DNA of 64,000 bases, from NCBI GenBank assembly GCA_963712115.1, contig CAVQGX010000030.1, positions 128,001 through 192,000 of the forward strand. Reading direction: 5' to 3'. The translations under genes and the position numbers were made by a program. The notes beneath the pieces were generated by a model, which saw nothing but the letters and a program-made list of their open reading frames with translations, was not told the origin of the DNA and searched no databases. Origin of the DNA: an uncultured delta proteobacterium (GTDB taxonomy: Bacteria; Desulfobacterota; Syntrophobacteria; BM002). This document shows positions 244-63,740 of the stretch, piece after piece; position 1 is the stretch's first letter; each line of letters starts with the position of its first letter.

Positions 244-380
244 CTGTTTGCCGTTCAATCCGTCACAACAACACTGTTTACCGCTTACCGTTCACTGTTT
301 ACGACATATCGATTTCATTGACTTAACAAATCTACCCATGTTATTAAGACACTTCCTCAATCTGATGGAGTAAAGACTCG

Positions 381-1598
381 TTGCTTGAAACGACCGAAAA
401 ACCTACTTCGCCTGTCAAAATTGGAGTGCGACAACACTCCACTCCTATCCTTTTCAGTTTGTGCATACTGACCTTCAGCAGTGCGAACTTGATGCTTAGC
501 TTTTTTCTTCCTGTGTACATGAAAGCACAGGGCCTAACTGACGGTCAAATTGGAACAGTATTTGGGCTTATGTCCATATCTGCTCTGATATTGATGTTTC
601 CTTTGGGTGTCCTTTCGGACCTTTTCCCGCCGCGACGACTAGTGCTTTATGGTGTTTGTATCTTTATTCTTTATTCTTGGCAGATTCTTACGGCGGAAAT
701 TTATTGGCAATTTCTTCTGGTTGCTCCATTGGGGGGGCTAGCAGTTTCTACTTTTTTTATCGTTCTATATGCTTTGTTTTTGAAAGTAATAGACAAGAAC
801 CAGGTTGGCAAGAAAATCGCCTTTTACCAGTCTGGCATGTATCTTGGCCTCGGAATTGGGCCTGCTATCGGTGGACTGCTGATCCGTGAGGGAGGTTTTG
901 GAGCCCTGCTTTGGGGGGTGCTGGCTGGAGGACTGGTTGTTTTGATTCTCGTTTTGAAGTTGCCTGAAACAGACACTATCCGTCTAGATCTGGGCGGTTA
1001 TAAGCGCGACCTCCATCAGGGCCGAATTGTCCTTTTCCTTCTCCTTGTTTTTACTTATCCCATTCATTTTGGGGTTGAGCAGACTGCCCTTACTTTGCTC
1101 ATGAAAGAGAGCCTTGGTTTTTCCTTTACCAACATCGGTCTAGTTTATCTCATGATCGGCATCTGGATGGCTTTCCTTGCTCCTTTTGCCGGGCATCGCT
1201 TTGATACTAGTCAGAGCCTTCGAGCTCTTCTTATCTGTGGATTGGCCATTTCTGGAACTTTTCAAATTCTTACCGCCATGGTCTCCTCCCTTCCCTCTAT
1301 GGTCATAGTGCGGCTCCTCCACACCGTAGGTGATGTAATGATGATCCTGTCAATAGGAGTGATGACTGCTGCTTTTTTCCCCGAGGCGAGAATGGGAGGC
1401 AACTCTGCAGTTGTTGTGGCCATTCGTACCTGTGGCATATTCACGGGGAATTTAGGATCTGGTTTCATCAATGGTGCACTGGGCTACGGTTACAGCTTTG
1501 CCATCAGCGGAGGTGTCCTCCTACTTTTTGTAATCTTGACAGGCGGTGCCATGGGACGCCTCCTGATAGTCAACAAGGACTCGGACTCCTCTAATTAG
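381..1598 (+). CDS. MFS transporter
   Basis: 405 aa, about 12 hydrophobic segments, motif A-like GVLSDLFPPRR, second-half repeat AGHRFD; start codon uncertain. Confidence 0.85.
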   Translation: MLETTEKPTSPVKIGVRQHSTPILFSLCILTFSSANLMLSFFLPVYMKAQGLTDGQIGTVFGLMSISALILMFPLGVLSDLFPPRRLVLYGVCIFILYSWQILTAEIYWQFLLVAPLGGLAVSTFFIVLYALFLKVIDKNQVGKKIAFYQSGMYLGLGIGPAIGGLLIREGGFGALLWGVLAGGLVVLILVLKLPETDTIRLDLGGYKRDLHQGRIVLFLLLVFTYPIHFGVEQTALTLLMKESLGFSFTNIGLVYLMIGIWMAFLAPFAGHRFDTSQSLRALLICGLAISGTFQILTAMVSSLPSMVIVRLLHTVGDVMMILSIGVMTAAFFPEARMGGNSAVVVAIRTCGIFTGNLGSGFINGALGYGYSFAISGGVLLLFVILTGGAMGRLLIVNKDSDSSN

Positions 1599-1780
1599 TC
1601 AAATAGTCAACTCGTCGATTAGTCAATTCGGCCATTAGTTAATTGGTCAATTAGTGGACTAGTCAATTAGTGAAATCGTTGAGGGTAAAGAGCAGCCGGT
1701 AAGCGATTCAGAGGTAATGGGTAATAGGTTATGGGTTATGAGTGACAACCTATCACCTATGGCCTATAAACCATCACCGG
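1596..1780. repeat. Intergenic mosaic repeat: TAGTCAAT octamers then GGGTAAT/TTACCCA-type heptamer inverted pair
   Basis: tagtcaaatagtcaac..attagtcaattag; ggtaatgggtaataggttatgggttatg / acctatcacctatggcctataaaccatcacc. Confidence 0.85.
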
Positions 1781-1788
1781 CGAGGCCC

Positions 1789-1826
1789 GTAGGTCGGATG
1801 GTTCCGCGGAGCGGGTTCATCCGACA
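1789..1826 (+). repeat. REP-like palindrome with GTAG tetranucleotide
   Basis: GTAG-GTCGGATG...CATCCGAC-A; same architecture as enterobacterial REP sequences. Confidence 0.6.
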
Positions 1827-2390
1827 ACAATTTACTGAACCACCGAGCTATTTGATATCACAAGGAACAAAGTATCTACAGTTTATTTACATTTTTTTAC
1901 AATTAATTAACAATAAGTTTTTCCATAACAGTAATCTACAGTATATGTACAACTTTGGTACAAATTAGAAACGAATAAATAACAACTTTAAAATAAAAAA
2001 AATTTTATATTGACAATTTGATATGTTTTGAGAGAATGCGTTCATTATTGAACATATATATACCTACCAAGTGATCTAATATCGACTTAAGTTGGGCACA
2101 ATGCGAGTCTTCAATCGCGCTAATGTCAACTGCTTCCAGTAAACTTGATTGAGTTATCAACCCATACTTCTATCTCTACTGTCGGTGGCAGACTGTAACC
2201 GAGTTGGCGAAGCTATGCTCCAGTTACGCTGGAGCACGAGACGGGAGGTCGGGCAAGACGGCGATACGAGAAATCTCTTCAACGGATTTGACTATTTGAC
2301 AATTCGACGAATTGACCTAACTGTGAGCTGTGAGCTTTCAGCTGTGAGCTAAGTTGACAACTTTGACGACTTGAAAGATCGGAGAAAAAA

Positions 2391-2597: not shown

Positions 2598-2751
2598 CCT
2601 GATTATTTCCTGTTCTGCCATCTGTCATCCGCCCTCTGCTTTCTGACTTCTGTTCTCTAATCTCTGACCTCTGGTTAAATGAAAAACGGACGACCGTGGT
2701 GTATAAAGGAATTACCGAAAAACCAAAACACACCACAAAGTAGGTCGTCCA

Positions 2752-3804
2752 ATGAAAAAGGTAGCATATCTGGCTATAGATGTACATGCAGGTCACTGTG
2801 TTCTCGGCCACATGGATTTTGATGGAACTTTTATTGGAAACAGAAGATTTCCCACATCCGAGCGACACATTATCCAGGCCCTCAAAGCTGTTAAAGCAAA
2901 GGAGAAGTATCTGGCACTGGAAGAAAGTAACCTTGCCTATTGGGCTGCCCAGGTGGCCAGACCCTATGTAACCGAAGTCATCTCCTCTGATCCCAGGGAG
3001 AACGCCTTGATCTACCGCAGTGCCAACAAGAGAGATAAGGTTGATACCCACAAGTTGTGCCGTCTTCTTAGACTGGGGGAGTTGAACCGGGTTTATCATG
3101 CTGAAAATGATGACCGCGCCATATTTAAGTCGGCGGTTCAACACTATATAGATCTTCGCGATCAGCAGGTGGTGTTGAAGAACAAGATTAAAGCTATGTA
3201 CCGTCACTGGGGTGTTATTGAGGTAACAGGCCAAGCCGTCTATGGCACCAGCCGTGATGATTATCTGCAAAGGGTGAAGCATCTTCATATTCGCAATCAA
3301 CTTCATCGTCTCTATTGTCTAATGGATGAAACCGAGTCCATGCAAAAAAGAGCTCTTAAGGCAATGAAGCAACTCGGGCGTAAATATCCTGAGATCAAAG
3401 AATTCGAAAAGATGCCTGGCATAGGGGAGATTCTTTCCCATATTTTCGATGCCTTCATTCAAACTCCCCACCGCTTTGCTCATAAGCGTAAACTCTGGCG
3501 CTATTGCCGCTTAGGGATCACCGATCGCTCCAGCGACGGTAAACCGCTGGGATTTAAACGGCTGGACAGATCCGGTGTCTCAGAACTCAAAGCCTTGAGC
3601 TATCGAGCATGGCTTGGTGCCATGGGAGGCGATAACGAGGTTAGAAAGTTTTACTCACGCTCCTTGCGGCAGACTCTAAGCCATGTCCATGCCAGACTCA
3701 ATACCCAGCGAAAGATCATTGCCGTCATGTACGGCATGTGGAAAAGAGGAGATGCCTATAGGCCTGAACTGTTCCTGGATTCGCCACAGATGAACGTTGT
3801 CTAA
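2752..3804 (+). CDS. IS110-family transposase/recombinase (DEDD)
   Basis: AIDVH, LEES, KRDKVD catalytic residues; MPGIG; C-terminal SSDGK serine motif. Confidence 0.93.
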   Translation: MKKVAYLAIDVHAGHCVLGHMDFDGTFIGNRRFPTSERHIIQALKAVKAKEKYLALEESNLAYWAAQVARPYVTEVISSDPRENALIYRSANKRDKVDTHKLCRLLRLGELNRVYHAENDDRAIFKSAVQHYIDLRDQQVVLKNKIKAMYRHWGVIEVTGQAVYGTSRDDYLQRVKHLHIRNQLHRLYCLMDETESMQKRALKAMKQLGRKYPEIKEFEKMPGIGEILSHIFDAFIQTPHRFAHKRKLWRYCRLGITDRSSDGKPLGFKRLDRSGVSELKALSYRAWLGAMGGDNEVRKFYSRSLRQTLSHVHARLNTQRKIIAVMYGMWKRGDAYRPELFLDSPQMNVV

Positions 3805-4176
3805 AGGAGACAGCACCATTAACTGGACTGAAGTGCGCAGACCAGTCCGGCGGATCCGGGTTGCCGGGTGAGTCTCGATCAATAGAAGTCTAGCCACCCC
3901 CGATGCTTCGGGGCGACAGGCTCGACCTCTGGATAGGCCCCCGGCCTTTATACCCAATGTGACCCTAGTCATTTTCCTCTCAGGAAAAACAGACTCATAT
4001 ATGTGACTGGAAAGAACACGGCCCGCACTGTCATGTTGATCCGATCACCCGACTGTGTATGCACACTTCATAAGTTAAGTGATGGTCTGCTCCCACATGG
4101 CCAACAAGGCTCACGGTCGTCCTGTGAAGTCAAAAACTCGATTTCACGGTAATGGATAAGTTTTTCTTTACTTCAC
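3805..4176 (+). ncRNA. Putative bridge/seek RNA region of the IS1111-type element (exact ends unknown)
   Basis: About 370 nt non-coding with hairpins; contains GACCTCTG (3924-3931, target plus core) and ATATGTG (3999-4005, donor plus core). Confidence 0.6.
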
Positions 4177-4475
4177 TTTTCATATGTGACCTCTGATAAA
4201 AACGACTTCAACGATTTAACTAATTGCCTAGGTAATAGGTGATGGGTTATAGGTTTTTGCCTCTTACCCATGACCTTTTGTTCCTTTCCCGCCTGTCTCG
4301 CATTTTTCGCTTTATACCTACCGCTTACTGCTTACCGCGTAACCTTTACTAATACCTAATAATCTTTTCCCACATCTCTTTTTCCCCACCCTACAGCCGC
4401 AGCAAATCACCCACCTCTGAGCAGCCTTCAATTCCATCCACCGCATAACCCTTAATAAAATCAGTTAGGAAAGCA

Positions 4476-5843: not shown

Positions 5844-5992
5844 AAAATTGGTGAGCGGTAAACGGTTAGAAGCAAAGAATTATATTTTAAAAATACTCTT
5901 TAATTAATAATCCTTATACCGCTTACTGCGTCTTTATGCAAGGTGGTAGCCAGCAGCTTGGAACTTGGGATTTTAGACTTGGAACTTGAAGT

Positions 5993-6925
5993 ATGGAATG
6001 CATATTACTCGGCAGCGGCGGCATGATGCCAATGCCGTATAGGCTTCTTACTTCACTGGCGGTTCGGTTCAATGGCAGAATCTACATTTTCGACGCCGGT
6101 GAAGGCACCCAGCTTGGATTGAAAAAAACCAAGATAGGCATACGCGGGTTGAATGTCCTGGCGGTGAGTCATCTCCACGCCGATCACTGTCTTGGCATTC
6201 CTGGCATTATGATGCTGAAGGCACAAATCGAGGACCCTGAACCACTCACCATAATAGGCCCCCCCGGAATCAAACAGTTCGTGGAACAAGCCCACGCTAA
6301 CCTTGGTTTCTTCTTGAATTTTACCGTTAGCTTTTTGGAATGGTCAGAGCAAAACAGTGAGGTGGCTTACGAAGATGGCAAGATTCGGATCATCTGGCAT
6401 CCACTAGAACACAGCCGCTTCTGCCTGGGTTATCGTTTAGAGGAATTAGATCGACCAGGAAAATTTAAACCTCACCTAGCTACATCCCTTGAAATTCCAA
6501 AGGGGTCTCTTTGGGGCAAATTGCAGCAAGGTGAGTCGATCACCCTTGAAGATGGCACGGAGATCTCACCCGAACAGGTTTTAGGTCAGCCAAGGAGGGG
6601 ACGCCATGTAGCCTATGTGGTAGACACCAGGCCTTCAAAGGGGGTTTACCGGCTCTGCCAAGATGCGGACATTGCTTTTATGGAAGGCATGTTCCTGCCT
6701 GAGCACTCTGAACATGCGGAGGCCAAGGGACACCTTACTGTGGTGGATGCAGCCCGCATTGCCGGCAGGGCTGGGGTACGTCGTGCTGTACTGGTTCACA
6801 TCAGCCCGCGCTATAATAGTGATGAGCTATCTCTTCTGGCAGAAGCAGCCAAATCTCGCTTTAACGGGGCGGAGGTTGGTGAAGACTTTAAAGTCTACCA
6901 GGTACCGTTGCCGGAAGATGATTAA
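5993..6925 (+). CDS. rnz: Ribonuclease Z
   Basis: LLGSGG, FDAGEGTQ, HLHADH metallo-beta-lactamase motif, flexible arm, HISPRY. Confidence 0.93.
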   Translation: MECILLGSGGMMPMPYRLLTSLAVRFNGRIYIFDAGEGTQLGLKKTKIGIRGLNVLAVSHLHADHCLGIPGIMMLKAQIEDPEPLTIIGPPGIKQFVEQAHANLGFFLNFTVSFLEWSEQNSEVAYEDGKIRIIWHPLEHSRFCLGYRLEELDRPGKFKPHLATSLEIPKGSLWGKLQQGESITLEDGTEISPEQVLGQPRRGRHVAYVVDTRPSKGVYRLCQDADIAFMEGMFLPEHSEHAEAKGHLTVVDAARIAGRAGVRRAVLVHISPRYNSDELSLLAEAAKSRFNGAEVGEDFKVYQVPLPEDD

Positions 6926-6927
6926 GA

Positions 6928-7093
6928 ACGCATAGCGCAAAGCGCAGAGCGCAGAACGTCGCGATAGGTGATGGGTAATGGGTAATCGGTGAGAGGTAAC
7001 CTATAACCTATGACCTATAAACCATTACCCGGCGAAGCCGTGATTTGAACGATTTGACTAATTGACTAATCGACCAATCAACCAATTGACTAA
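6928..7093. repeat. Intergenic mosaic repeat (AGCGCAT, GGGTAAT pair, AACGATTTG, ATTGACTA)
   Basis: Degenerate tandem 7/9/8-mers read directly from sequence. Confidence 0.85.
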
Positions 7094-7104
7094 ATACGAA
7101 GGAA

Positions 7105-7281
7105 ATGCCTTTGAGTCGCAGAGGGCGATTTGGAAAATATGGAGACCTCAAGAGGAAATCGAGGCTGAGGGCGGCGCGACTTGCTAAGCGCAAGAGATTC
7201 GGAGCAAATGCGTATTTGCCTGGAGGGCGGAGGAAGGCAGCAGGCAGCGGGCAACGGGCAGCCGGCAAAGGGCGGAAGTGA
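7105..7281 (+). CDS. Small very basic protein (58 aa), below the ORF-track cutoff
   Basis: MPLSRRGRFGKYGDLKRKSRLRAARLAKRKRFGANAYLPGGRRKAAGSGQRAAGKGRK; unique sequence between two repeat tracts. Confidence 0.5.
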   Translation: MPLSRRGRFGKYGDLKRKSRLRAARLAKRKRFGANAYLPGGRRKAAGSGQRAAGKGRK

Positions 7282-7520
7282 GAGGGCAGAGTGTTTCAAG
7301 GCGAGAAAAGCGAGAAAGGCGAGTAAGGCATAGGGTATGGGGAAAAGCGGCAGGCAGTGTCGTTATCCGTTATTAGTTATTTGTTATTGGGGACATCTAA
7401 AGACAGCGAGTTAAGAACAGAGTTTCTGCGAATAACGGATAACAAATAACAAATAACATCTTATACCGCTCACTGCTTACCGCTTACGGCTTACGAAAAC
7501 TAATTGACCAGTTGACCAAA
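7235..7520. repeat. Intergenic mosaic repeat (GGCAGCA, GGCGAGAAA, GGCATAG, GTTATT/AATAAC pair, CCGCTTA, ATTGACCA)
   Basis: Includes a 39-nt block identical to 10772-10810. Confidence 0.85.
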
Positions 7521-7534
7521 CAGTAAGGAAAAGA

Positions 7535-7888: not shown

Positions 7889-7914
7889 CCCAAAGCGGGC
7901 GGCGCTTTGGGCTG

Positions 7915-8110
7915 CAGGACGGGAGGTCGGGCGAGACGAGCGAGACGGGATCAAGGGTCAGAAGACAGAAGACAGAAGACAGAATGCCGCATTTCGGATT
8001 GCGGATTTCGGATTTGGGATGTGAGATGAGAAACGAGAAATACCGCTTACGGCCTACTGCTTACCACTTAAGAAAACAAATTGACTAATCAACGAATTGA
8101 CTAATTGACT
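7915..8110. repeat. Intergenic mosaic repeat (GCGAGAC, CAGAAGA, TTTCGGA, CCGCTTA, ATTGACTA)
   Basis: Read directly from sequence. Confidence 0.85.
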
Positions 8111-8127
8111 TGACACGAGGCGGAGAG

Positions 8128-10692
8128 ATGACGATGTCGAACTTGTATTTTTGCAAATATTTCCCTGAAACCGTTGAGGAGGATAACTTCCTCCTTCCTG
8201 ATGCCAAACCCCAGTGGAATCCCTCCAGAGACATAATACTAACCCATGTCTACTTGGATCTTGTTTTTCAATTGGAAGGGAAGAAGCTGGCGGGAAAAGC
8301 AAAGATCGCCTTTGCCTCCATCAAAAAGGAACTGAAGAGCATTTTTTTCGACTGTTGCGAATTAAAAATCGAGCGAGTAACCTCCGAAAGCGGACAAGTG
8401 CTGAAATTCAAGCAGAACGATCGAGGTGTAAAGATATATTTAGCTGAGTCTATGGGCCGCGACCAAAGTAGTACGATTAACCTTGATTATCAGGTGGAGG
8501 ACCCACGGTTAGGACTATATTTTACTGGACCAGATGAGCACTATCCCGACAAGCACTGGCAGGTTTGGAGCCAGGGTCAGGACGAGGACAACAAATACTG
8601 GTTTCCCTGCGTGGATCACCCCAGGGAAAAAGTCACCAGCGAGATTAGGGTGAAAGTAGACAAACCTTACGTAGTGGTCAGCAACGGTGTACTCAGGGAT
8701 CGATATGAAGATGGGGATGGTCGGTTGGTATATCACTGGTCAATGGAAAAACCGCACAGTATCTACCTCATTAGCCTGGCCATTGGGAGTTTTACCGAAT
8801 TATCGGATTGTTTCGAAGATATTCCTCTATCTTTTTATGTGCCCGAAGGCCGCGAAGAGCAAGGTCAGCGATCTTTCGAGAAGACAGCTGAGATCATGCA
8901 ATTCTTTTCAGAGAAGACCGGCATCCGTTACCCCTATCCACAGTATTCGCAGGTGATTGCTCAAGACTTCATCTTTGGAGGTATGGAGAATACCACCGCT
9001 ACTACCTTGACAGAAATGACTTTGCATGATGAGAGGGCTCATCTCGATTTCACCAGTGAACATCTGGTGGCGCACGAGTTAGCGCATCAATGGTTTGGGG
9101 ATCTGGTCACCTCCAAAAGCTGGAGTCACAGCTGGCTCCATGAGGGTTTCGCTACCTATTTTGACCTGCTCTACACCGAGCACGCTAAAGGAGAAGATGA
9201 ATTCTATTACCGCTTGCTCGAGAATCGGGAGACCTATTTCGAAGAGCACGATTCGAAGTATAAGCGATCTATCGTAACTAACGTCTACAGCCAACCCATT
9301 GATCTCTTTGATATGCACCTATACCCAGGTAGTGCAGCCCGACTTCATATGCTTAGACGACTCCTGGGGGAGGAGGAATGGTGGGAAATTATCAACCTTT
9401 TTCTTAAGAAACATAGGGATTCGGTAGTGGAGACAGTTGATTTCGCCCGCTGCATTGAGGAGGTTACCGGTGACAATTACGACTGGTTTTTAGACCAGTG
9501 GTTTTTTAGGCCAGGTTTTCCCTTGCTTGAATGTTCTTTCGAGTATCAGGACAAAGAAAAGACTTTGGTTTTCCATCTCAAACAGAATCAGGATGGTGAA
9601 AAGGAACAGCCACCGTTCCGCTTTCAGCTAATTGTTCGGCTGGCAGATGACAAGGGGGGAGGGGAGGATGTCCGGCTACAGATAGATGAACGGGAGCACC
9701 ATTTCTACATCCCTGCAGCTCAAGAACCTTTTATGGTTCTAGTTGACCCTGAGGATAGCGTTTTAAAAAGGTTGAAATGGAAAGCAGATAGCGGAAAACT
9801 ATGCAATCAACTGAAAAAAGCTAAGAATGTGTTAAAGCGCATTGAAGCGGCTGCTGAATTGGCAAAGGTGGGCAGTCGTGAGGCAGTGGCTGCTTTGGAA
9901 GAGTCGATGCACCAGGACCCGTTTTGGGGAGTGTCAGCACGTGCTGCTAAGGCACTGGGTGAAATTCGCACAGAGAAAGCTATGAAGGCTTTGATTGGCG
10001 GACTGAAAATCTCACACCCGAAAGCGCGTCGTGCTGTGGTAAAAGCTCTCGGAAATTTCAAGGAAGAGCAAGCTTTCAAAGCCCTAAAGCCTCTGGCGAA
10101 GAAAGACCCTTCTTATTTTGTTGAGGCTGAGGCGGTTTACGCCATCGCCCGCACTAGGATAGAGGGCGCATTTGGAGTGCTCGAGAGTGCCCTGGCGAAG
10201 GACTCTTTCAATGAAGTAATTCGGTGCAAAGCATTGGAGGGGTTTGCGGAACTGGATGATGACCAGGCCCTGCCCATACTTTATGAACACTCCCGTTATG
10301 GCAAAGCAGAAATGGTTCGAGCACAGGCCCTGCGAACACTGGGTATGATGGGGAAAAGTAGACCCAATAACAGGGAGATTTTAGAGAAGATAGGTGACGC
10401 TTTCCGGGCCCCAAGCGGTCCCAGGTCTTTTCGTGCTAAGTTGGCTGGTATCCAGGCCCTGGAATCGCTGAATCGGGAGGATGGAATTCCCATTCTAAAG
10501 AGGGTGGCCGAGGCAGAGTTGGATGGCCGCCTTGTGCGCAATGCCAGAATGGCCATAAGAAAGATCGAGAAAGGCAAGGACAAGGGTGAGGCTATTCAAA
10601 AGCTGGAAAAGAGGTTGGACGATTTTGCGGAGGAAAACAAAAAGCTGAAGGATCGCCTGGATAGACTTGAGATGCAAGCCAGTGAGGAGTAG
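8128..10692 (+). CDS. M1-family aminopeptidase (PepN-like) with C-terminal HEAT repeats and coiled coil
   Basis: GGMEN and HELAH-X18-E motifs; repeated ARAAKALG/RAVVKALG HEAT units; ATG after GGAG preferred over TTG at 8110. Confidence 0.92.
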   Translation: MTMSNLYFCKYFPETVEEDNFLLPDAKPQWNPSRDIILTHVYLDLVFQLEGKKLAGKAKIAFASIKKELKSIFFDCCELKIERVTSESGQVLKFKQNDRGVKIYLAESMGRDQSSTINLDYQVEDPRLGLYFTGPDEHYPDKHWQVWSQGQDEDNKYWFPCVDHPREKVTSEIRVKVDKPYVVVSNGVLRDRYEDGDGRLVYHWSMEKPHSIYLISLAIGSFTELSDCFEDIPLSFYVPEGREEQGQRSFEKTAEIMQFFSEKTGIRYPYPQYSQVIAQDFIFGGMENTTATTLTEMTLHDERAHLDFTSEHLVAHELAHQWFGDLVTSKSWSHSWLHEGFATYFDLLYTEHAKGEDEFYYRLLENRETYFEEHDSKYKRSIVTNVYSQPIDLFDMHLYPGSAARLHMLRRLLGEEEWWEIINLFLKKHRDSVVETVDFARCIEEVTGDNYDWFLDQWFFRPGFPLLECSFEYQDKEKTLVFHLKQNQDGEKEQPPFRFQLIVRLADDKGGGEDVRLQIDEREHHFYIPAAQEPFMVLVDPEDSVLKRLKWKADSGKLCNQLKKAKNVLKRIEAAAELAKVGSREAVAALEESMHQDPFWGVSARAAKALGEIRTEKAMKALIGGLKISHPKARRAVVKALGNFKEEQAFKALKPLAKKDPSYFVEAEAVYAIARTRIEGAFGVLESALAKDSFNEVIRCKALEGFAELDDDQALPILYEHSRYGKAEMVRAQALRTLGMMGKSRPNNREILEKIGDAFRAPSGPRSFRAKLAGIQALESLNREDGIPILKRVAEAELDGRLVRNARMAIRKIEKGKDKGEAIQKLEKRLDDFAEENKKLKDRLDRLEMQASEE

Positions 10693-10942
10693 GCAGAGGG
10701 CATAGGGCATGGGGATATGGGGCGAGACGAGAGGTCGGGGTGAAGAGAGTTCAGGTGATGGGTAACAGGCAGCAGGCAGTGTCGTTATCCGTTATTAGTT
10801 ATTTGTTATTCAGGAGAGCTGTCGCAATGAGCTGCCTTAACGATTTCAACGGCTTGAACGTCTTCAACGGTTTTAACGAATTGACTAGTCGACTAATTAA
10901 CTAATTAACGATTTAACGAGTTGACCAGAACCTGGAACTCAA
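10693..10942. repeat. Intergenic mosaic repeat
   Basis: GGGCATA, GCGAGAC, GGTGATG, GGCAGCA, GTTATT, AACGATTTC, ATTGACTA modules in order. Confidence 0.85.
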
Positions 10943-12522: not shown

Positions 12523-12710
12523 GCAGAGGTCAGAGGTCGGAGATCAGAAGTCAGATTTCAGCTGGCAGCTCGCACCCGGCAGCTCGCAGGTTAGGTTAAT
12601 TAGAGAATTAGAGAATTGGGTAAGTCTCAGAAAACGTTACAGTTCACCGTTTACCTTTTACCATTCACTTAAACTAATCAACCAATCAACTAATTGACTA
12701 TTTAACTAAC
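12523..12710. repeat. Intergenic mosaic repeat
   Basis: CAGAGGT, GGCAGCT, AATTAGAG, CCGTTTA, AATCAACT/ATTGACTA. Confidence 0.85.
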
Positions 12711-12720
12711 CGAAGAACAA

Positions 12721-13773: not shown

Positions 13774-13774
13774 A

Positions 13775-14016
13775 CGCATAGCGCAAAGCGCATAGCGTCT
13801 CCATAGGTGATGGGGAATAGTTCACAGGTAATAGGTAATGAGTGATGGGTGAGAGGTCAGAGGACAGAATTTCGAATTTGGGATTGCGGATTTCGAAATG
13901 TTTGAAGGTCTCTACGATTCCTACGACTTCTGCGATTTGAACGAGATACTGCTGACCGCTTACTGCTTACCGCTTAAGAAGAGAATTGACTAATCAACTA
14001 ATCGACGAATTGACTA
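13775..14016. repeat. Intergenic mosaic repeat
   Basis: AGCGCAT, GGTGATG, CAGAGG, TTTCGAA/TTGCGGA, TACGACTTC, CCGCTTA, ATTGACTA. Confidence 0.85.
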
Positions 14017-14459: not shown

Positions 14460-14850
14460 TCGAGCGCAAGGCGCATGGGCACTTCGCGCGGCAAGGCGGG
14501 AGGTCGGGATTAGCTGGAAAGGCGAAAAAGGGTTATCAGGTTATAGGTGACGGGTGAGAGGTCAGAGATCAGATGTCGGAGGTCAGAAGACAGACGACAG
14601 ATTTCAGCAGGCAGCAGCAGCAGGCAGAAGTCAGAGGACGGAGGTCTGAAGTCACTAGGACAGTTGTTCATAGTTCAGAGCGTTCAAAGTTTAAAGTTAG
14701 AACGAATTATAGGCTGATCTTTTGGGAAGTAACGTATAACAAATAACGAATAACATTTCGTGCGGTTTACCGTTTACCGTTCACGGTTTTACGACTTGAG
14801 CGACTTTAACGATTTCAACGATTTTAACGGTTTAACCGTTGACGGTTTGC
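14460..14850. repeat. Long intergenic mosaic repeat
   Basis: At least nine repeat families in succession. Confidence 0.85.
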
Positions 14851-16012: not shown

Positions 16013-16140
16013 ATCAGAGGTCAGAGATCAGATGTCGGAGGTCAGAAATCAGATGCTGGAGGTTAGGGCTAAAGCTGATTTCTGATCTCCGACTTCTGAC
16101 CTCTGTGATGGACGATTTCAACGATTTCAACGGTTTAACT
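16013..16140. repeat. CAGAGGT/CTGACCT heptamer inverted pair plus AACGATTTC nonamers
   Basis: 47-nt block 16068-16114 matches reverse complement of 50282-50328 with one mismatch. Confidence 0.9.
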
Positions 16141-16181
16141 TTAGTTGATCTATTTTACACCATGCGGCATGGGGGAGGTAA

Positions 16182-17621: not shown

Positions 17622-17749
17622 CTGGCGAGACGCGCGAGACGCGCGAGACGTGAAAGAGCTGGAGTACTGGAGTTCTTTTACACTCGACCTCCAGTCTCGC
17701 CCGACCTCCCGTCTCGCTGTTTATGCGCCTCGCGCATAAAGAATTCGTT

Positions 17750-24461: not shown

Positions 24462-24686
24462 GTGTTCACCTGGCAGCCTCAAAAGAAAAGAGGTCAGAGG
24501 TCGGAGGTCAGAGGGCAGATGGGTAATTAGAAAATTAGAGAATTAGAGAATTAGTTAAATACTCAAGTAGTTACCGTTTACCATTCACCTTTCACCATTT
24601 ACTAATGCTGATCAACTACCTGCTTGCTGCCTGCTGCAGGCTTTGCTTCAAGCCAAATCCGACAGGCGAAAAACGAGTGTTATGAA

Positions 24687-25910: not shown

Positions 25911-26150
25911 CAAAGGGCATAGAGTAAAAAATCAGGGGTCAGGGGTCAGAGGACAGAAGAAGAGGACAACTGGCAGGAGGCAGCTAGCAGGTAGTTAATT
26001 AGAGAATTAGACAATTGGAGAATTAGTGAAGGAAGTCGGTTATTTACGGATTAACCGTTTACCGTTTACTAATAACTAATTACCTAATCAACTAATTAAC
26101 GGTTTTAAAGATTTGAACGACTTCAACGTTTTCAACGGTTTTAACGATCT
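25911..26150. repeat. Intergenic mosaic repeat
   Basis: GGGCATA, CAGGGGT, GGCAG, AATTAGAG, CCGTTTA, AACTAAT, AACGACTTC. Confidence 0.85.
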
Positions 26151-26751: not shown

Positions 26752-27489
26752 ATGTTGATAATTCCTGCCATCGACTTGAAAGAAGGGCGATGTGTGCGCT
26801 TGCAGCGAGGAGTAATGTCTACGGCCACGATCTATTCCGACAATCCGGCTTTGACAGCAAGACGGTGGGAAGCGCAAGGAGCCCAATGGCTGCACGTGGT
26901 GGACTTAGATGGTGCCTTTGCCAAGAAACCCAAGAACCTGGCGGCCGTTGCTGCAATTGTCGACTCCGTTGGTATACCAGTTCAGGTGGGCGGGGGTGTG
27001 CGCACGCTAGAGACTCTTGCTGCTTATCTTGAGATAGGAGTGGAGCGTGTGGTAATGGGGACAGCTGCCCACAGTAATCCGGAAATATTGGTGCAGGCTT
27101 GTCAAAGTTTTCCAGGGAAAGTTGTTTTGGGGATAGACAGCCGCAAGGGTAGAGTTGCAATTGAGGGATGGAGCCAGACCACTGATGTAGGGTCAGGGGA
27201 CTTGGCAGTCAGGTTTGAAAACCTGGCTCTTGCAGCTATTGTCTACACTGACATCTCCAGAGACGGCATGCAGACTGGTCCAAATGTAGAAGCGACCCGA
27301 CAGCTGGCTCGAGCGGTGAAAAGGCCTGTTATTGCATCAGGGGGAGTGGGGAATCTTGACCATATCCGAGCACTCTTGCCCCTTGAACAAGACGGGGTAA
27401 TAGGAGTGATTGTTGGTCGTGCACTCTATAGTGGAAGTGTGGAGTTGAGTGAAGCCATTGCTCTGGCGAGGGGAATTCCTGGGGCATAG
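26752..27489 (+). CDS. hisA: ProFAR isomerase
   Basis: IPAIDLKEGRCVRL, HVVDLDGA, QVGGGVR, YTDISRDG, IASGG. Confidence 0.97.
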   Translation: MLIIPAIDLKEGRCVRLQRGVMSTATIYSDNPALTARRWEAQGAQWLHVVDLDGAFAKKPKNLAAVAAIVDSVGIPVQVGGGVRTLETLAAYLEIGVERVVMGTAAHSNPEILVQACQSFPGKVVLGIDSRKGRVAIEGWSQTTDVGSGDLAVRFENLALAAIVYTDISRDGMQTGPNVEATRQLARAVKRPVIASGGVGNLDHIRALLPLEQDGVIGVIVGRALYSGSVELSEAIALARGIPGA

Positions 27490-27685
27490 GGCATAGGGTA
27501 AAGAGTTAGAGGTCAGAGAACAGAGGTCAGATATCAGAGGACAGAAGGCAGGAGGCAGAATTTCGAATTGCGGATTTCGAAATGAGAAATTACCGCATTG
27601 TGATTTCAGCGAATTTAAGGATTTGAACGACTTGAACGTTTTCAACGGTTTCAACGATTTGACTAATCGACTGATTTTCGATTTG
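27480..27685. repeat. Intergenic mosaic repeat starting inside the hisA stop region
   Basis: GGGCATA x2, CAGAGGT, TTTCGAA/TTGCGGA, AACGATTT, TTGACTA. Confidence 0.85.
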
Positions 27686-38226: not shown

Positions 38227-38283
38227 CGCAGAGCGTGTTACTCTTAACTTTAAACTTTGAACTTTGGACTTGGAACTTAGAAC

Positions 38284-40399: not shown

Positions 40400-40572
40400 A
40401 TTTGTCAATTAGTTGATAGGCCAATACGTGAAAGGCGTTGAAATCGTTAACCACAGAGGTCAGAAGTCGGAGATCAGAGATCAGCCTTACCCCTGACCTC
40501 CGACATCTGATCTCTGACCTCTTAGGTCTATCTGCTGCCTGCTGCTAGCTTTCTGCTGCTTGCTGACCCCTG
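40400..40572. repeat. Mosaic repeat oriented with minus-strand glnS
   Basis: Same module order as plus-strand spacers when read on the minus strand; 40452-40485 identical to 50289-50322. Confidence 0.88.
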
Positions 40573-48363: not shown

Positions 48364-48558
48364 TAACCCGGATGTTTTATGAATTACTTACTACGACCAC
48401 GGATATGGTCATCCTTCCGTGCGTCCTCGGGTGTTGGCCCCTGCGACGTACCATTCAGGTACGCCTCGGATCCAATCCCGCGGTACCGCGGGACGGTTGC
48501 CCGGTGGCACGCCCATCTTCGTGGTCTCGTGACAGCAATTCATGAAACATCCGGGCTA
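48364..48558 (+). mobile_element. MITE copy 1 (195 bp)
   Basis: TIRs TAACCCGGATGTTTTATGAA / TTCATGAAACATCCGGGCTA; internal palindrome TCCCGCGGTACCGCGGGA. Confidence 0.88.
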
Positions 48559-48625
48559 AGACTTTTAAAGATGCGGAGAAGAATTTTGAGTGGAACTTAG
48601 CTGGTCAGAGAGGAGTAGGTGTTAA

Positions 48626-50233: not shown

Positions 50234-50389
50234 TGTCGATAAAACCGTTTACATCGTTGAAGTCGTTCAAATCGTAGAAACCGTCCATCACAGAGGTCAG
50301 AAGTCGGAGATCAGAGATCAGCTTTAGCTCTGACCTCTACCTGCTGCCAGCTGTATTTCCCCATGCCCTTTGCGCTATGCTCTATGCCC

Positions 50390-50929
50390 TCAAAAAGAGA
50401 TGGGCTCAACATCGTCCTCGTTGAGTTCTACTGAAACCGCCTGTTGAATAATATCTATGGCCACTACCAATCTTGATTTCTCATGCTTCTTGCGAACCAA
50501 AATCCCTTCACAACCATAGAGAGGGCCATTGACAATCCTTACTAGCATTCCTTCCTTTAAATAGGGATGAACCGTAAGCACAGTGGCGTTGCTGAGAAGT
50601 GTTATCAGGCTGCTCATCTGACTGTCAGGTACTGGCAGGGGGCCGTCCTCGTTGCGAACTATTCGGACAACTCCAGGTGTCTGCAAAATCTTCAATTGTT
50701 CGTAGTTGTCGAGTGAGGCACGCACAAAGAGGTAGCCAGGGAAAATCGGCATCTGGATCTTTTTGCGTCGGTCCCTCCGTTTACTCCAGCGCTCCATCTG
50801 CGGCAAGAGACAGTCGAAGGACTTGGCCAGCAAACGAGAGTATACCTTGCTCTCGTGGCGAACCTGGGCGTAGACGGCATACCAAGCTGGTGTCATATGA
50901 GAGACCGGATCTGTCATTACTTGTTCCAA
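50390..50929 (-). CDS. NusG-paralog antiterminator (UpxY/LoaP/RfaH-like)
   Basis: WYAVY..RHE, WSKRRDRRKKIQMPIFPGYLFV, TPGV, KOW motif VRIVNGPLYGCEG. Confidence 0.9.
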   Translation of the reverse strand: MEQVMTDPVSHMTPAWYAVYAQVRHESKVYSRLLAKSFDCLLPQMERWSKRRDRRKKIQMPIFPGYLFVRASLDNYEQLKILQTPGVVRIVRNEDGPLPVPDSQMSSLITLLSNATVLTVHPYLKEGMLVRIVNGPLYGCEGILVRKKHEKSRLVVAIDIIQQAVSVELNEDDVEPISF

Positions 50930-57968: not shown

Positions 57969-58019
57969 TCAAGAAGCGCATAGCGCTTCCATGTGCGAGA
58001 CGAGCGAGAGTCGGTGATA

Positions 58020-58799
58020 ATGGGAATTACCCTCAGATCTTTTAGTTCCCATCTCGCCCGACCTCCCGTCTCGCCCGACCTCCGGTTTCGTCCGACTTCC
58101 GGCCTCGCTTTTCATGCGGTTTGTTCTCCCATAGGGAATATCTTTTGCCTGGTTTATTTGCTCACAGCCGTTAGTTGCGCCTACCTCCGGCCGCACCTGA
58201 CGCCAGCAGAACTGAGCGAACGGCTTCAGTATTGTCAAGACAGATTTCTGGAAGAGTTGGTTAACATCACTTTATCCAAGGGCTATGAGGCAGTCAACGG
58301 CGAGGGTCGAGCCAGGCAAGTCCTGGAACTGAATAATTCGCGTTCCGTTACTATTCACCGGCAGTTTTTCGAAGTGCAACCTTATGGGGATGGACTATCG
58401 GAAGTATTTTTCTTGGAGAACAGAGGCTCTGTAAACCACTCGAAGTTAAGCAGTTTCCCACGCCATGCCCGGAGAGCCATCAGAGATTTTCTGAATGGAT
58501 TACCCAAAGACAGGAGGAGTCAGTACAAACCACTGTTGATCCGGCAGGAGAAGCTCTCGCGCCGGATGATCTTTTATGAGACGGATAGGGGAAAAAAGAC
58601 TTTCGAATTCACTCGTAAGGTGGGTTGTTTAGAGATAAGCAATTTATACGGACTTTACCCTCTACCAGATGGGCCATTCATTTTTTTCGGGCAGGAAAGA
58701 GAAAGACTCTCCAGGAAAGATTTTCTGCAAGCAGACGATCATTACCAAGATCTGGTAAACAATTTCCTCAGAGAGTTTCGCGGGGAAATCAAGCTATGA
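58020..58799 (+). CDS. Hypothetical, probable lipoprotein (start uncertain; 5' part runs through repeat)
   Basis: Long ORF in operon direction with hydrophobic stretch ending AVSC. Confidence 0.6.
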   Translation: MGITLRSFSSHLARPPVSPDLRFRPTSGLAFHAVCSPIGNIFCLVYLLTAVSCAYLRPHLTPAELSERLQYCQDRFLEELVNITLSKGYEAVNGEGRARQVLELNNSRSVTIHRQFFEVQPYGDGLSEVFFLENRGSVNHSKLSSFPRHARRAIRDFLNGLPKDRRSQYKPLLIRQEKLSRRMIFYETDRGKKTFEFTRKVGCLEISNLYGLYPLPDGPFIFFGQERERLSRKDFLQADDHYQDLVNNFLREFRGEIKL

Positions 58800-59783: not shown

Positions 59784-60030
59784 GCAGCGGGCAGAAATAA
59801 GAGGTCAGAGATCAGAGGTCGGAGGTCAGACGAAAGAAGACAGCTTGCAGTGTGGTTATCCGTTATTACTTCTTCGGGTGATTTGTTCCTATGAGCTGTT
59901 TTAAAGGTTTCTACGATTTCTACGACTTTTACGGTTTCAACGATTTGAACGACTTGAACGATTTCAACGGTTTTAACGATTTGACCATTTGACGAATTGA
60001 CCAATTGACTACTAGGCTATGGGCATAGCG
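59783..60030. repeat. Intergenic mosaic repeat with long AACGATTTC run
   Basis: About nine nonamer units followed by ATTGAC octamers. Confidence 0.88.
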
Positions 60031-61475: not shown

Positions 61476-61650
61476 AAAGCCTCCCCAATACATACAATAT
61501 ATATAGATTAGCTAGAGATTAACAGGCTACACACCGACTGTCAAAACAAATCTTTGAAAATGCTACAGCGAGCGCATTCCCCGTCTCGCCCGGGCGGGAC
61601 TGCGGGGGTAGCAGGCGAACTACAATAAAATGGAATCTCTTCTTTACATT

Positions 61651-61846
61651 TAGCCCGGATAATTTCATGAATCACCTGCTGCGACCACAGATATGGCCGT
61701 CCTTCCTGGCGTCCTCGGGTGTCGATCCCTGCGACGGACCCTTCAGGTACGCCTCGGATCCAATCCCGCGGTACCGCGGGACGGTTGCCAGCTGGCACGC
61801 CCATCTTCGCGGTCTCGCAACAGTAATTCATGAAATATCAGGGCTA
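61651..61846 (+). mobile_element. MITE copy 3
   Basis: TAGCCCGGATAATTTCATGAA ... TTCATGAAATATCAGGGCTA; interior similar to copy 1. Confidence 0.88.
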
Positions 61847-63313
61847 GGGAAAGAGTTGTTCTGGAGAATCTTCGGAGTTGGGTTTGGACTTAAGTTGAAT
61901 AGTGACCAGGACCTTTTTGTTCTGTCCGGGAAGCAGTCTAAGAGAAGCCGGAGAGAGTACCACTGGAACTTCCACGATTTTCTCTCCACTTTGAGGTTCT
62001 ATGTCGCCTACACTGATAGGCTCGGTTTTTAGGCTAAGCATATTGTTGAGCGTTGATAATGGGCCGGTTACCCTTACAGAACCCGGTCTGACCCTTATTC
62101 TGTCAATCAGATATCCGGGGGGGGGAGATCCAACTATATTTGGCTCTACCGCTATTTCTCTCTCTACTCGAGTTTCCATTTCTAATCTTATTGCCGCTGG
62201 GGTTATACGTACCACCTCCAGACCTAGTGGTAGTTCGATATTGTCTCCGTTCAACACAATTCGGTGAAATCCCGCTTCAATCGCACTGAGATCCAAGAAA
62301 GCACCCACCTGTTCTGGTTTGAGAGCGCTAACAAGCCTGCGTTTACCAGTAATTTGTACTTCTACTCTCTCGGCAGATGATCTCCTGAGTTCTAGGCTCT
62401 CCGGTATGTTACGAAAATCCACCGCAGTGGTAACATTAATCAGAGATAATTGCTTGCCCGAGTAGATTCCCCAGGAGGCCGAAACCAGCAGGAAGGTTAG
62501 TAGAAGGCCACCAGCTTGAATAAGCAACTCCCTCACCCTGGTTCTTGGTTTTACGGCTGTGTAAGTCCCCAGGAGCAATCTACCTAGCACCATCTGGAGT
62601 TGAGGCGGTTTAGGGACCAATTCCACTTCACCCCGATGTACCACCGAGACCTCGCCACGCTCTTCGGATACTACTACTATGACCACATCAGTCATCTCAC
62701 TCAGACCAATGGCGGCTCTGTGTCTGGTCCCGTATTGTCGGGGTAAACCCTCTTTTTTAGTTAAGGGCAAGTATGCCCCAACTAACTTGATCCGGTCTCC
62801 CTGTATTATTGCCGCGCCGTCATGCAGAGGACTTTCTTTGGCGAAGATGCTGGCCATAATTTCAGGGCTCCACTTGCCTTGGAGAGTAATTCCTTCACTC
62901 AAGTGTTCGGCCAACCTGTCTCGCTGTTGGAAAACAAGCATAGCACCTATTCTGTTCTTGGCCATCTTGAAGGCCGTCCTCTCTACCTCAGGCAGGTCAA
63001 TTGTCCCAGGTTGGTAAGGTCGACCTAGGAAAAGACGAGCGGGGCTGGTCTGAATTACAACGTCGCGGATTTCATTTCTGAAAACCACCACGATGACAAG
63101 CACAGCAATAGCACCTAAACCCTGGAAAAACCAGCTGGTGAGTATAAGGCCGCTTGCCTGGGCAAGGGTGTGACACACCCAAAGGAATAGAAGGCCTAAG
63201 AGTATTTGTAAGGCCGTAGTTCCACGGAAGAGGAGAAACAGCCTGTGGATAAGAAAGCTGATTACCAAGATGTCTACAACATCTTGCCATTTGAAAGAGA
63301 AAAGGAAATCCAT
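61844..63313 (-). CDS. Diadenylate cyclase CdaA fused to YbbR (CdaR-like) domains
   Basis: Three N-terminal TMs, HDGA and GTRHRAA motifs, VSEERG, a further TM, then two YbbR-like repeats. Confidence 0.9.
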   Translation of the reverse strand: MDFLFSFKWQDVVDILVISFLIHRLFLLFRGTTALQILLGLLFLWVCHTLAQASGLILTSWFFQGLGAIAVLVIVVVFRNEIRDVVIQTSPARLFLGRPYQPGTIDLPEVERTAFKMAKNRIGAMLVFQQRDRLAEHLSEGITLQGKWSPEIMASIFAKESPLHDGAAIIQGDRIKLVGAYLPLTKKEGLPRQYGTRHRAAIGLSEMTDVVIVVVSEERGEVSVVHRGEVELVPKPPQLQMVLGRLLLGTYTAVKPRTRVRELLIQAGGLLLTFLLVSASWGIYSGKQLSLINVTTAVDFRNIPESLELRRSSAERVEVQITGKRRLVSALKPEQVGAFLDLSAIEAGFHRIVLNGDNIELPLGLEVVRITPAAIRLEMETRVEREIAVEPNIVGSPPPGYLIDRIRVRPGSVRVTGPLSTLNNMLSLKTEPISVGDIEPQSGEKIVEVPVVLSPASLRLLPGQNKKVLVTIQLKSKPNSEDSPEQLFP

Positions 63314-63328
63314 GAAATATCCGGGCTA
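63311..63328. repeat. Solo MITE terminal inverted repeat containing the cdaA start codon
   Basis: CATGAAATATCCGGGCTA. Confidence 0.8.
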
Positions 63329-63436
63329 GAGAAAAATGTACCACCCCGAAGGGGTTGAACAGCATCTGCCTCCAACTACACAAGTTACAGAACTAGCAAG
63401 ATTCATACTTGAATGCAAGTGTACTCAAAAGACTTT

Positions 63437-63740
63437 TTGTCAGTTGTCCGTGGTCCGTTGCGAGAAAGCATAGAGCATAGGATTATACGGGCGAGACGGG
63501 CCCTTCGACAGGCTCAGGGTAAACTCACGAGAGGTCGAGCGAGACGGGATCAGGACTCAGAGGACAGCTGGCAGGGGGCGGGTAACTGCCAGAGGTCGGA
63601 GGTCGGAAGTCAGAGGACAATCTTCCTGTGAGCTAACTGACGATTTCTACGACTTCTACGGTTTCTACTATTTACCGCTTACCAATTACTAAAACTAATC
63701 AACTATTTGACCAATTGGCGCCATGCAATGCGCTCTGTGG
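63437..63740. repeat. Intergenic mosaic repeat oriented toward tRNA-Arg
   Basis: AGCATAG, GCGAGAC, CAGAGG, TACGATTTC, CCGCTTA, ATTGAC and closing (T)GCGCTC modules. Confidence 0.85.

Follow-up and report, generated by a model that had tools for sequence, protein, structure and literature searches.

Tandem heptamers in intergenic DNA are known from cyanobacteria and were later found in giant sulfur bacteria and in Geobacter; their origin, spread and function have remained unexplained. The cyanobacterial forms, the short tandemly repeated repetitive (STRR) heptamers of Nostoc, Anabaena and Calothrix, have been recognised for decades. Mosaics of another kind are formed in E. coli by repetitive extragenic palindromes (REPs), which are arranged in bacterial interspersed mosaic elements (BIMEs) or, together with REP-associated tyrosine transposases (RAYTs), as REP doublets forming hairpins (REPINs); such hairpin doublets lie behind stop codons inside operons and are targets of IS110-family elements. 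The intergenic mosaic elements of Neisseria with their dRS3 repeats serve as integration sites for IS110/Piv-type recombinases. The function of the STRR-type heptamers is still given as unknown in the accessible part of a preprint (10.1101/2022.06.06.494920). For Geobacter metallireducens, the accessible text of PMC2700814 describes paired tandem hepta-, octa- and nonanucleotide repeats as "predicted global regulator binding sites". In marine Beggiatoaceae, the accessible account of PMC4679880 reports TAACTGA as intergenic direct repeats of 2-6 copies with a patchy distribution, located upstream of start codons, and proposes a post-transcriptional role. Here we analyse the spacers of a 64,000-nucleotide stretch of DNA, referred to as the window, from an uncultured delta proteobacterium of sulfate-reducer type in the Desulfobacterota (G000:C30:128001-192000; genome of 4.9 Mb in 70 contigs, ~49% G+C), many of which are occupied by mosaics of tandem 7-, 8- and 9-nt repeats.

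We consider it probable that these mosaics are dispersed intergenic repeats extending through the lineage, of the same kind as the STRR heptamers and the paired repeats of Geobacter and organised like the BIMEs and REPINs of E. coli and Pseudomonas. Their basic module of ~30 nt consists of roughly four degenerate units of 7, 8 or 9 nt and draws on a genus-specific vocabulary. Inverted pairs of modules, led by the purine-rich arm and followed by the pyrimidine-rich one, are common, and modules are joined into composite blocks of 70-200 nt. Such blocks have been copied between unrelated spacers, arrays have gained and lost whole units, and between species of the genus with 80-92% identity in their genes, whole mosaics have appeared, vanished or given way to others. 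Coding DNA is almost free of arrays, which cluster towards the stop codon within the spacers and in at least one case supply the stop codon itself.

Occurrence and anatomy of the arrays

The initial annotation of the window had described the spacers as strings of degenerate tandem repeats of 7-9 nt belonging to about 12 families. Tandem Repeats Finder (TRF) clearly confirmed this structure, yielding 112 rows for the window, almost all with a period of 7, 8, 9 or multiples thereof, at the positions named in that annotation. At least one array of period 7-9 was present in 30 of the 45 window spacers, with an array cover of up to 74% of a spacer. All 12 families were recovered and accommodate 54 of the 81 distinct window arrays, whereas the other 27 fall into further families. 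None of the window spacers gave an Rfam match at gathering score.

For analyses of the whole genome, genes were predicted with an ORF-based caller made for this purpose (4009 genes, 77% coding density; stops exact, starts approximate). Period-7 arrays numbered 1947 in intergenic DNA (1.74/kb) compared to 168 in coding DNA (0.044/kb), a 39-fold enrichment, and arrays made up 7.1% of the intergenic but 0.32% of the coding bases. The real spacers contained 1849 period-7 arrays versus 17, 26 and 18 in three dinucleotide-preserving shuffles (~90-fold). The periodicity scan with its shuffled controls thus revealed a strong intergenic excess, and coding DNA did not carry the arrays at equal frequency. 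Altogether, ~2600 TRF arrays of period 7-9 were detected in the spacers of the genome, with more than 300 distinct canonical heptamers; this last count and the list of the 60 most frequent families include convergent spacers, which the other counts of order and strand keep apart from co-directional ones. The arrays are not assembly artefacts: they also appear in independently assembled genomes, single-contig chromosomes among them, and in contigs from public DNA runs.

The length distribution of the arrays is peaked and does not decay, with a mode of 30-32 nt. Counted by whole units, heptamer arrays most often comprise four units (n = 729), followed by three (n = 550) and five (n = 130), and octamer and nonamer arrays also have a median length of 28-29 nt. 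The module therefore measures ~30 nt whatever its unit. Units inside the arrays are degenerate, with 63-88% matches according to TRF in the window. A same-family partner in the same spacer was found in inverted orientation for 405 of 1896 arrays versus 56 of 1896 in direct orientation, the gap between inverted partners having a median of 29 nt and a 95th percentile of 250 nt. Among untied inverted pairs the purine-rich arm came first in co-directional (113:32), convergent (23:8) and divergent spacers (14:9). The few inverted pairs of different families that bear on nesting were nested once, disjoint twice and crossing twice.

A roughly conserved order of the modules, as proposed from the window, was also observed genome-wide: the minority-order fraction was 0.108 compared to 0.294 in 200 shuffles (shuffle minimum 0.262). 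AGAGGTC+ preceded AGAGGTC- in 22:0 cases, with corresponding ratios of 14:0 for ACTAGGC and 8:0 for AGCGCAT, and AGAGGTC+ preceded AACGATTTC+ in 18:0. Starting from the upstream stop, spacers carry AGCGCAT, GGCAGCA or ACTAGGC, then AGAGGTC and subsequently its complements, with AACGATTTC and ATTGACTA towards the downstream gene. The left/right pattern of purine-rich and pyrimidine-rich arms is the same in co-directional spacers of both strands and in convergent spacers and is weak in divergent ones. The reported flip of the order with the gene strand holds only in part. For paired heptamers it is largely automatic because a dyad of purine arm and pyrimidine arm reads alike on both strands, whereas the sense-biased nonamers, GGCAGCA and the pile-up of arrays at the stop side represent a real polarity. 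Nonamers of the AACGAYTTS type were found in sense versus antisense orientation at 31:2, the broader AACGATTTC family at 49:10 and GGCAGCA at 35:8, demonstrating the orientation bias on which the initial proposal of a polar element system had depended. For most heptamer families the sense bias was only about 1.5:1, and divergent spacers are filled as well (301 heptamer arrays).

The first array lay at most 5 nt from the stop codon in 19.7% of 1195 stop-side distances versus 9.6% under random placement and overlapped the stop codon in 9.9% versus 1.4%. Purine-rich modules had been described as beginning within a few nt of the upstream stop. In the 25 co-directional array-bearing spacers of the window, the first array was indeed purine-rich in the sense strand (>60%) in 20, but a start near the stop was seen in only 10. 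Likewise, the AACGATTTC and ATTGACTA tracts, described as sitting just before the next start, were the last module in about 9 of these 25 spacers; genome-wide, arrays of these two types lie at median distances of 81 and 134 nt from the start, which indicates a tendency only.

The mosaics of the window are as follows (where no sign is given, no strand was assigned).

6925..7100: mosaic directly behind the RNase Z stop, which the first array overlaps; AGAGCGC x4.4, GGTAATG x3.4, TAACCTA x3.4 and TTGACTAA x5 (TRF, sequence)
7235..7494: mosaic of AGGCAGC, AAGGCGAGA, a GTTATTA/AATAACA inverted pair (predicted hairpin of -25.3 kcal/mol, z -3.7) and then TACCGCT (TRF, sequence, RNA folding)
7959..8110: CAGAAGA, ATTTCGG and AATTGACT arrays reaching the predicted start of the aminopeptidase N-like gene (TRF)
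10692..10917: GGCATAG array overlapping a stop, then GTTATTA, TTCAACGGC and TTAACTAA (TRF)
12524..12709: CAGAGGT, CAGCTCG, AATTAGAG, TTACCGT and AACTAATC in a 198-nt spacer, 74% arrays (TRF, BLAST versus relatives)
13775..13976: CGCATAG array at a stop, then ATAGGTA, GAATTTC, CTACGATTC and TACCGCT (TRF, relatives, run contigs)
14553..14848: GGTCAGA x14.7, ATAACAA, GTTTACC and AACGATTTC arrays upstream of ispG (TRF)
16014..16165, + strand: composite hairpin element in sense orientation with AGAGGTC-type arm, loop, ACCTCTG-type arm, TGATGGAC linker and AACGATTTC array; RNA fold -53.3 kcal/mol, z -6.9; kept in place in the congener G002 (TRF, BLAST, folding)
17625..17717: GCGAGACGC x2.9 and its inverted partner CGACCTCCAGTCTCGCC; one 9-nt unit different in G002 (TRF)
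24489..24599: AGAGGTC, AATTAGAG and ACCATTC arrays (TRF)
25932..26148: TCAGGGG, CAGAGGA, AATTAGAG, ACCGTTT, ACTAATTA and AACGGTTTC arrays, 66% of the spacer (TRF, comparison with G002)
27482..27660: mosaic of ~200 nt beginning with GGGCATA, absent from G002 (TRF, comparison with G002)
38246..38283: AACTTTG x5.4 array, occupying the ispD-ispF spacer as far as the ATG of ispF; no Shine-Dalgarno motif (TRF)
40436..40565, - strand: composite hairpin element between the convergent genes cysS and glnS, in sense orientation with respect to glnS, comprising a GGCAGCA-type array, the hairpin and a tail of AACGATTTC/ATTGACTA type; folded as RNA, the minus strand gives -47.2 kcal/mol and the plus strand -37.7 (sequence, BLAST)
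50242..50390, - strand: composite element in truncated form, with AAATCGTTG, CAGAGAT and CCCTATG arrays, following the gene of the UpxY-type NusG paralog (TRF, sequence)
59792..60009: AGAGGTC, TTTCAACGA x8.3 and TTGACCAA arrays between a livF-like and a bactofilin gene (TRF)

The genes around these spacers are ordinary housekeeping genes, including those for RNase Z and an aminopeptidase N-like protein and ispG; the earlier assignments of ispD, ispF, cysS, glnS, the UpxY-type NusG paralog and the Liv-type ABC genes were confirmed, and the occurrence of arrays inside operons held for ispD-ispF-cysS. An Rfam scan of the window detected RNase P RNA and two tRNAs. A search with the IspG protein placed the DNA among uncultured bins labelled Deltaproteobacteria, Syntrophobacterales or Desulfobacteraceae; the nearest six loci are 78-83% identical in protein sequence and all others at most 68%. 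A 17-nt tandem array, TCCCGTCTCGCCCGACC x3.6, was noticed at 58047-58108 inside a low-scoring ORF of 268 aa (57993-58799), which may either have been called spuriously across a mosaic or be a gene that a mosaic has entered.

Copying and turnover of the mosaics

The composite element consists of a GGCAGCA array, AGAAC, a four-unit AGAGGTC-type arm, a ~10-nt loop, an ACCTCTG-type arm, TGATGGAC and an AACGAYTTS array, and its pattern of variant units is identical at many loci. BLAST detected 38 full-core matches with 74-100% identity, a number that includes the query itself, double hits on both strands and duplicate contigs. Of the 36 intergenic hits, 26 follow the end of a gene to which they are in sense orientation, and three copies or part-copies are located in the window (16014-16165, 40436-40565 and 50242-50390). 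With duplicated loci removed, array-rich segments of 80-400 nt with >=93% identity were found in 44 pairs of spacers, and multi-module blocks of 100-180 nt are common to unrelated spacers at 93-98% identity. Taken together with the peaked length, the non-random order and the predominance of inverted pairing, these blocks support the earlier statement that the arrays are not independent microsatellites.

Turnover was followed in congeners. The order of genes at positions 7501-35380 of the window is that of G002, with a nucleotide identity of 83-92%, and it is also found on contigs of G012 and G007 (80-92%); the orthologous spacers of all three differ in modules and lengths. For the spacer between the TPR and radical SAM genes (198 nt in the window), the gap left unaligned by BLAST is 17 nt in G002, 314 nt in G012 and 171 nt in G007, and the relatives carry other modules of the same vocabulary. 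At 25932..26148 the unaligned gap versus G002 is shorter (59 nt) and the module content is different, and the mosaic at 27494-27696 (~200 nt) is absent from G002. Here, the first GGGCATA unit at 27482 supplies a TAG stop, so that the protein ends in ..PGA* compared to ..QGRAL* in G002. This accounts for the pile-up of arrays on the stop side, since an insertion into a dispensable 3' tail has the look of an array that starts at the stop. Two copies of GGGCAT are present in the empty G002 allele at the very point where the window has the first GGGCATA units (27482-27489), and arrays may seed at such resident microhomology.

Other spacers are orthologous and differ from G002 by whole units of 9 nt and 14 nt. 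In addition, four public sequencing runs were used in the form of contigs, which derive from related strains (90-99% likeness), are uninformative on transcript ends, strand and level, and in which uncovered parts carry no meaning. These contigs show unit-number variants, module variants and breaks at arrays, among them a 21-nt deletion in the array at 11847 and a replacement of 13854-14007 by 21 nt, the latter seen in the DNA run X1 and also in a contig of X15 that comes from an RNA library.

We suggest that the modules spread at the DNA level, either by some form of non-autonomous transposition or by homology-driven copying between arrays. Slipped-strand mispairing would change the unit number, and selection acting through transcription and translation would then decide which orientations and positions survive; such selection would explain the strong sense bias of the G-poor nonamers near the downstream gene, the purine-first order and the slightly higher stability of the sense RNA. 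Mosaics inside operons would be co-transcribed and probably act secondarily, as mRNA hairpins or as unstructured leaders lacking a Shine-Dalgarno motif. The mosaics are not a conserved regulatory code, and a secondary role at the RNA level is possible.

Several points weigh against this interpretation as dispersed mobile repeats. Copies of the composite element have no sharp common ends, the similarity being lost at variable points in anchored copies, and no target-site duplication was found at them; recombination is therefore as plausible as classical transposition. The features of a miniature inverted-repeat transposable element (MITE), namely defined ends, terminal inverted repeats, target-site duplication and an autonomous relative, are not found in the arrays. 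Searching the genome for PF01797 (Y1 transposase) gave four hits, three IS200-like genes of ~150 aa and one weak hit on contig C20; none of them is flanked by the main arrays, no RAYT-like partner was detected, and no enzyme or autonomous partner of the arrays was identified. Mismatches between the arms do not bear a transcript-strand signature (G.U 108 versus A.C 109 in 150 pairs), and the roles in mRNA are inferred only. Moreover, starts are imprecise in our own gene model, the assembly, a metagenome bin, has a contamination of 6% and contains some contigs in duplicate, the related genomes are non-independent samples, and array-covering contigs from RNA libraries are no proof of transcription. 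Near-identical loci were observed on the contig pairs C34/C35, C43/C70 and C50/C57 of G000, representing duplicated or strain-variant contigs.

Besides the mosaics, the window contains two kinds of dispersed element.

2663..4196, + strand: IS110-family insertion sequence (ORF 2752-3804) in an ACCTCTG heptamer array (Pfam, genome copies)
48364..48560, 51001-51218 and 61649-61846, no strand assigned: three copies of a dispersed repeat of ~200 nt, outside the array system, with further matches on contigs of G012 and G007 (BLAST)

Both Pfam domains of the IS110-family element scored above threshold, and ~390 nt of its 3' part are non-coding. Three full copies with 99.5-99.8% identity are present in the genome, the others at G000:C30:40881-42416 and G000:C47:2216-3747. 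As the left flank always ends with TGACCTCTG and the right end carries GTGAC(C/T)TCTG, the element inserts into ACCTCTG arrays, in parallel to IS110 relatives that target REP or dRS3 repeats. It is the only cargo seen, and it targets an existing array.

An IS200-like Y1 transposase gene (G000:C56:7580-8362) adjoins tandem repeats of 16-19 nt (AAATGACGGCGAAGCC type), and similar units of AATGAC plus a small hairpin are often found beside heptamer mosaics elsewhere; the AAATGACGGCGAAGCC-type repeats could represent a REP-like family served by a dedicated transposase. A classical MITE, GC-rich, ~200 nt long and bounded by terminal inverted repeats of 16 nt, is dispersed over the genome (G000:C46:95988-96189 and more than 100 other places); it accounts for most of the spacer matches of 150-250 nt and is separate from the array system.

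Competing explanations

The arrays might alternatively represent an RNA-level regulatory code of binding tracts or hairpins on polycistronic mRNA that is read by an RNA-binding protein or the ribosome, a possibility which we judge rather unlikely; the arrays would then set stability, processing or Shine-Dalgarno-independent translation of the neighbouring genes, which appears just as doubtful. Apart from the sense orientation of the AACGAYTTS nonamers and the arrays inside operons such as ispD-ispF-cysS, translation starts argue for such a code, since among the 81 genes that have an array no more than 20 nt from their predicted start, only 8.6% possess a Shine-Dalgarno-like motif, versus 42.8% of 3109 others. 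At ispF, RNase Z and the radical SAM gene, the arrays extend up to the start codon without a Shine-Dalgarno motif (38227-38283, 5960-5992 and 12672-12720). The start codons of the gene model are, however, approximate, and genome-wide only about 43% of the predicted starts have a simple Shine-Dalgarno-like motif. In array-bearing spacers the sense RNA was more stable by 3.3 kcal/mol (179 versus 112, p about 1e-6) compared to 1.0 kcal/mol in array-free spacers, and the composite hairpin folded better on the sense strand in 30 of 35 copies; these copies are related, so their strand bias counts as one observation. A like idea has been put forward in the accessible parts of the reports on TAACTGA repeats (PMC4679880) and on Nostoc heptamers (10.1101/2022.06.06.494920).

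Other data do not agree with a code. The orthologous spacers of congeners carry other modules or almost none, unlike regulatory sequences, most heptamer families show little sense bias, and divergent spacers also hold arrays. G.U and A.C mismatches between the arms are equally frequent. The consensus fold of the 35 aligned hairpin copies, which retains only 8 pairs and no compensatory change because the arms pair in slipped registers, is neutral as to structure. Among further tests of function, intrinsic terminators (GC-rich stem plus T run) were not enriched in window positions 6001-26000 (26 versus 21.4 +/- 4.7 in shuffled sequence), the composite hairpin lacks a T run, and a scan for sigma-70-like promoters gave no excess. 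The RNA-level code that the initial annotation had offered as its alternative is weakly supported by the sense bias of the nonamers and the slightly more stable sense RNA, but not by the arm mismatches or the non-conserved orthologous spacers.

It is conceivable, though improbable in our view, that a dedicated enzymatic system writes or copies the ~30-nt modules of tandem units into spacers, with a single-strand HUH-type or recombinase activity or a template-repeating polymerase as candidates. The fixed module length, the constant purine-first dyads and the block-wise copying of variant units would fit a defined molecular process and not passive slippage. We assign a similarly low likelihood to the extension that the same kind of machinery would underlie the heptamer repeats of cyanobacteria, Beggiatoaceae and several lineages of Desulfobacterota.

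It also seems quite improbable that the arrays are sites on double-stranded DNA to which a protein binds as an oligomer, be it a global regulator or a nucleoid protein. Binding of an oligomeric or global regulator was proposed for the paired tandem repeats of G. metallireducens in the accessible text of PMC2700814, whose classes, as in the genome studied here, form opposite-strand pairs at variable distance. The constant module of ~30 nt whatever the unit length and the arm mismatches without transcript-strand signature would also suit a protein site. On the other hand, more than 300 canonical heptamers are too many for one or a few proteins, the arrays are concentrated at gene 3' ends rather than at promoters, turnover between congeners is fast, and there is no candidate protein, although none was sought.

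Independent microsatellites arising locally by replication slippage are highly improbable: unit-sized indels (9 and 14 nt versus G002, 21 nt in a DNA run) and the rank of heptamers as the commonest longer repeat unit in many bacteria, given in the accessible text of PMC4679880, would agree with slippage, but the lengths are peaked instead of decaying, the units are degenerate, the limited common vocabulary includes specific variant-unit patterns copied between loci, and the order of modules is non-random, so that this explanation appears already disfavoured, as judged from the multi-module blocks common to several loci.

We give hardly any credence to the cassette model of the initial annotation, in which the mosaics are layered footprints of small cassettes that entered behind stop codons with their own inverted-repeat pairs and later lost their cargo: same-family arrays do pair inverted, mosaics do abut stop codons and the IS110-family element, with ACCTCTG sequence on both sides, is one real cargo, but this element entered an array that was already there, has near-identical copies elsewhere and is no cassette that left arrays behind, and the loop between partner arrays is only 29 nt in the median. 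Enclosure of genes by matched repeats did not exceed chance, with same-family inverted flanks in 9 of the 277 genes that have arrays within 150 nt on both sides (6.6 +/- 2.4 when shuffled) and same-family direct flanks in 4 (3.8 +/- 2.0). Across four congeners, in the four syntenic regions compared, the orthologous spacers differ by presence or absence and swaps of modules only, with no gene cargo inside, although rare loci with cargo may exist elsewhere, and the small ORFs in large spacers (7535-7888 and 14103-14378) are kept in place in three relatives. The cassette model is therefore already disfavoured.

Distribution in the lineage and comparison with known systems

Our preferred reading as dispersed mosaic repeats of a lineage was followed through related genomes with a three-unit AGAGGTC pattern (<=3 mismatches) and the reversed pattern as control. 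All 17 genomes of the genus contained the pattern, with 13-429 hits versus 0-6 for the control, and the same array families occur around ispG in relatives. Of four further genera in the family, three gave a weak signal, and elsewhere in the class hardly any family was hit. Across the phylum, at <=2 mismatches, AGAGGTC was hit in 36 of 401 genomes. The AGAGGTC-rich unrelated families were few, led by G363 (157 hits) and followed by G338, G171, G114 and G327. Arrays of ACTAGGC and of AACGATTTC were each found in 0 of these five genomes, and the idea that the whole vocabulary is common across the phylum was dropped. G363, which belongs to another family and has 43% G+C, carries equally dense 7/8-mer mosaics of its own on two contigs (C31 and C2), including perfect arrays of 10-11 units that are longer than the ~4-unit modules described here. 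As the outside genomes are rich in arrays but differ in vocabulary, the phenomenon is recurrent and patchy and its vocabulary lineage-specific.

A literature search, with subscription journals mostly outside its range, gave no description of such repeats in Desulfobacterota. The genus provides a rich and tractable case, with thousands of arrays, 17 congeneric genomes, of which at least three, G002, G011 and G013, appear as a single contig, and fast turnover at collinear loci. Tracing gains and losses by comparison of these genomes could reveal the way in which such repeats spread and whether they influence the expression of operons. The mosaics also have practical consequences: they fragment short-read assemblies, whose contigs break at arrays, and they create or shift stop codons and thereby affect the annotation of the lineage. 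The IS110-family element, in turn, represents a natural case of a tandem-heptamer repeat used as a target.

Like the Neisserial mosaic elements, the mosaics consist of short intergenic repeats and are used as integration sites by IS110/Piv-type recombinases, but the repeat units are unrelated and those of Neisseria are not tandem heptamers. With REPs, BIMEs and REPINs they share extragenic mosaics of short motifs in alternating orientation and the formation of hairpins, both of which were found here, and also the position behind stop codons within operons and the use as targets by IS110-family elements. REPs, however, are single imperfect palindromes, whereas the modules described here are built of tandem 7-9-nt units, and none of the four PF01797 hits was an array-flanked RAYT. 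The TAACTGA repeats of Beggiatoaceae resemble the arrays as intergenic direct repeats of heptamers with a patchy phylogenetic distribution. They differ in that a single heptamer lies mostly just before starts there, whereas many families, mostly on the stop side and often in inverted pairs, occur here; TAACTGA was not among the top array families of the genome, in which no dedicated count of this heptamer was made.

The likeness to G. metallireducens, compared by description, extends to the 3-5 tandem units of 7-9 nt, mostly in opposite-strand pairs at variable distance and in multiple copies, as given in the accessible text of PMC2700814; correspondingly, four units are the mode here and the inverted pairs have a median gap of 29 nt. 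One of the Geobacter classes listed there, MTYCTGA x5, overlaps the ACTTCTG/ACCTCTG family of this genome. The same text reports 16-49 sites per class, whereas ~2600 arrays are present here and are joined into mosaics that fill spacers.

The arrays agree with the STRR heptamers in their tandem heptamers, their hundreds to thousands of dispersed, mainly intergenic copies, their lineage-specific vocabulary and their unknown function. They belong to another phylum and to other units, and none of the STRR1-3 units was among the 60 most frequent canonical heptamer pairs. In addition, 8- and 9-nt units, a length fixed near 30 nt, purine-first inverted pairs and a mosaic with a defined order of modules are found here. 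The system is thus set apart from earlier descriptions by its scale, its ~30-nt module, its purine-first dyads, its ordered mosaics and the copying of blocks, as well as by the speed with which mosaics turn over among the 17 congeners and by the use of an array as a target by an IS110 element.

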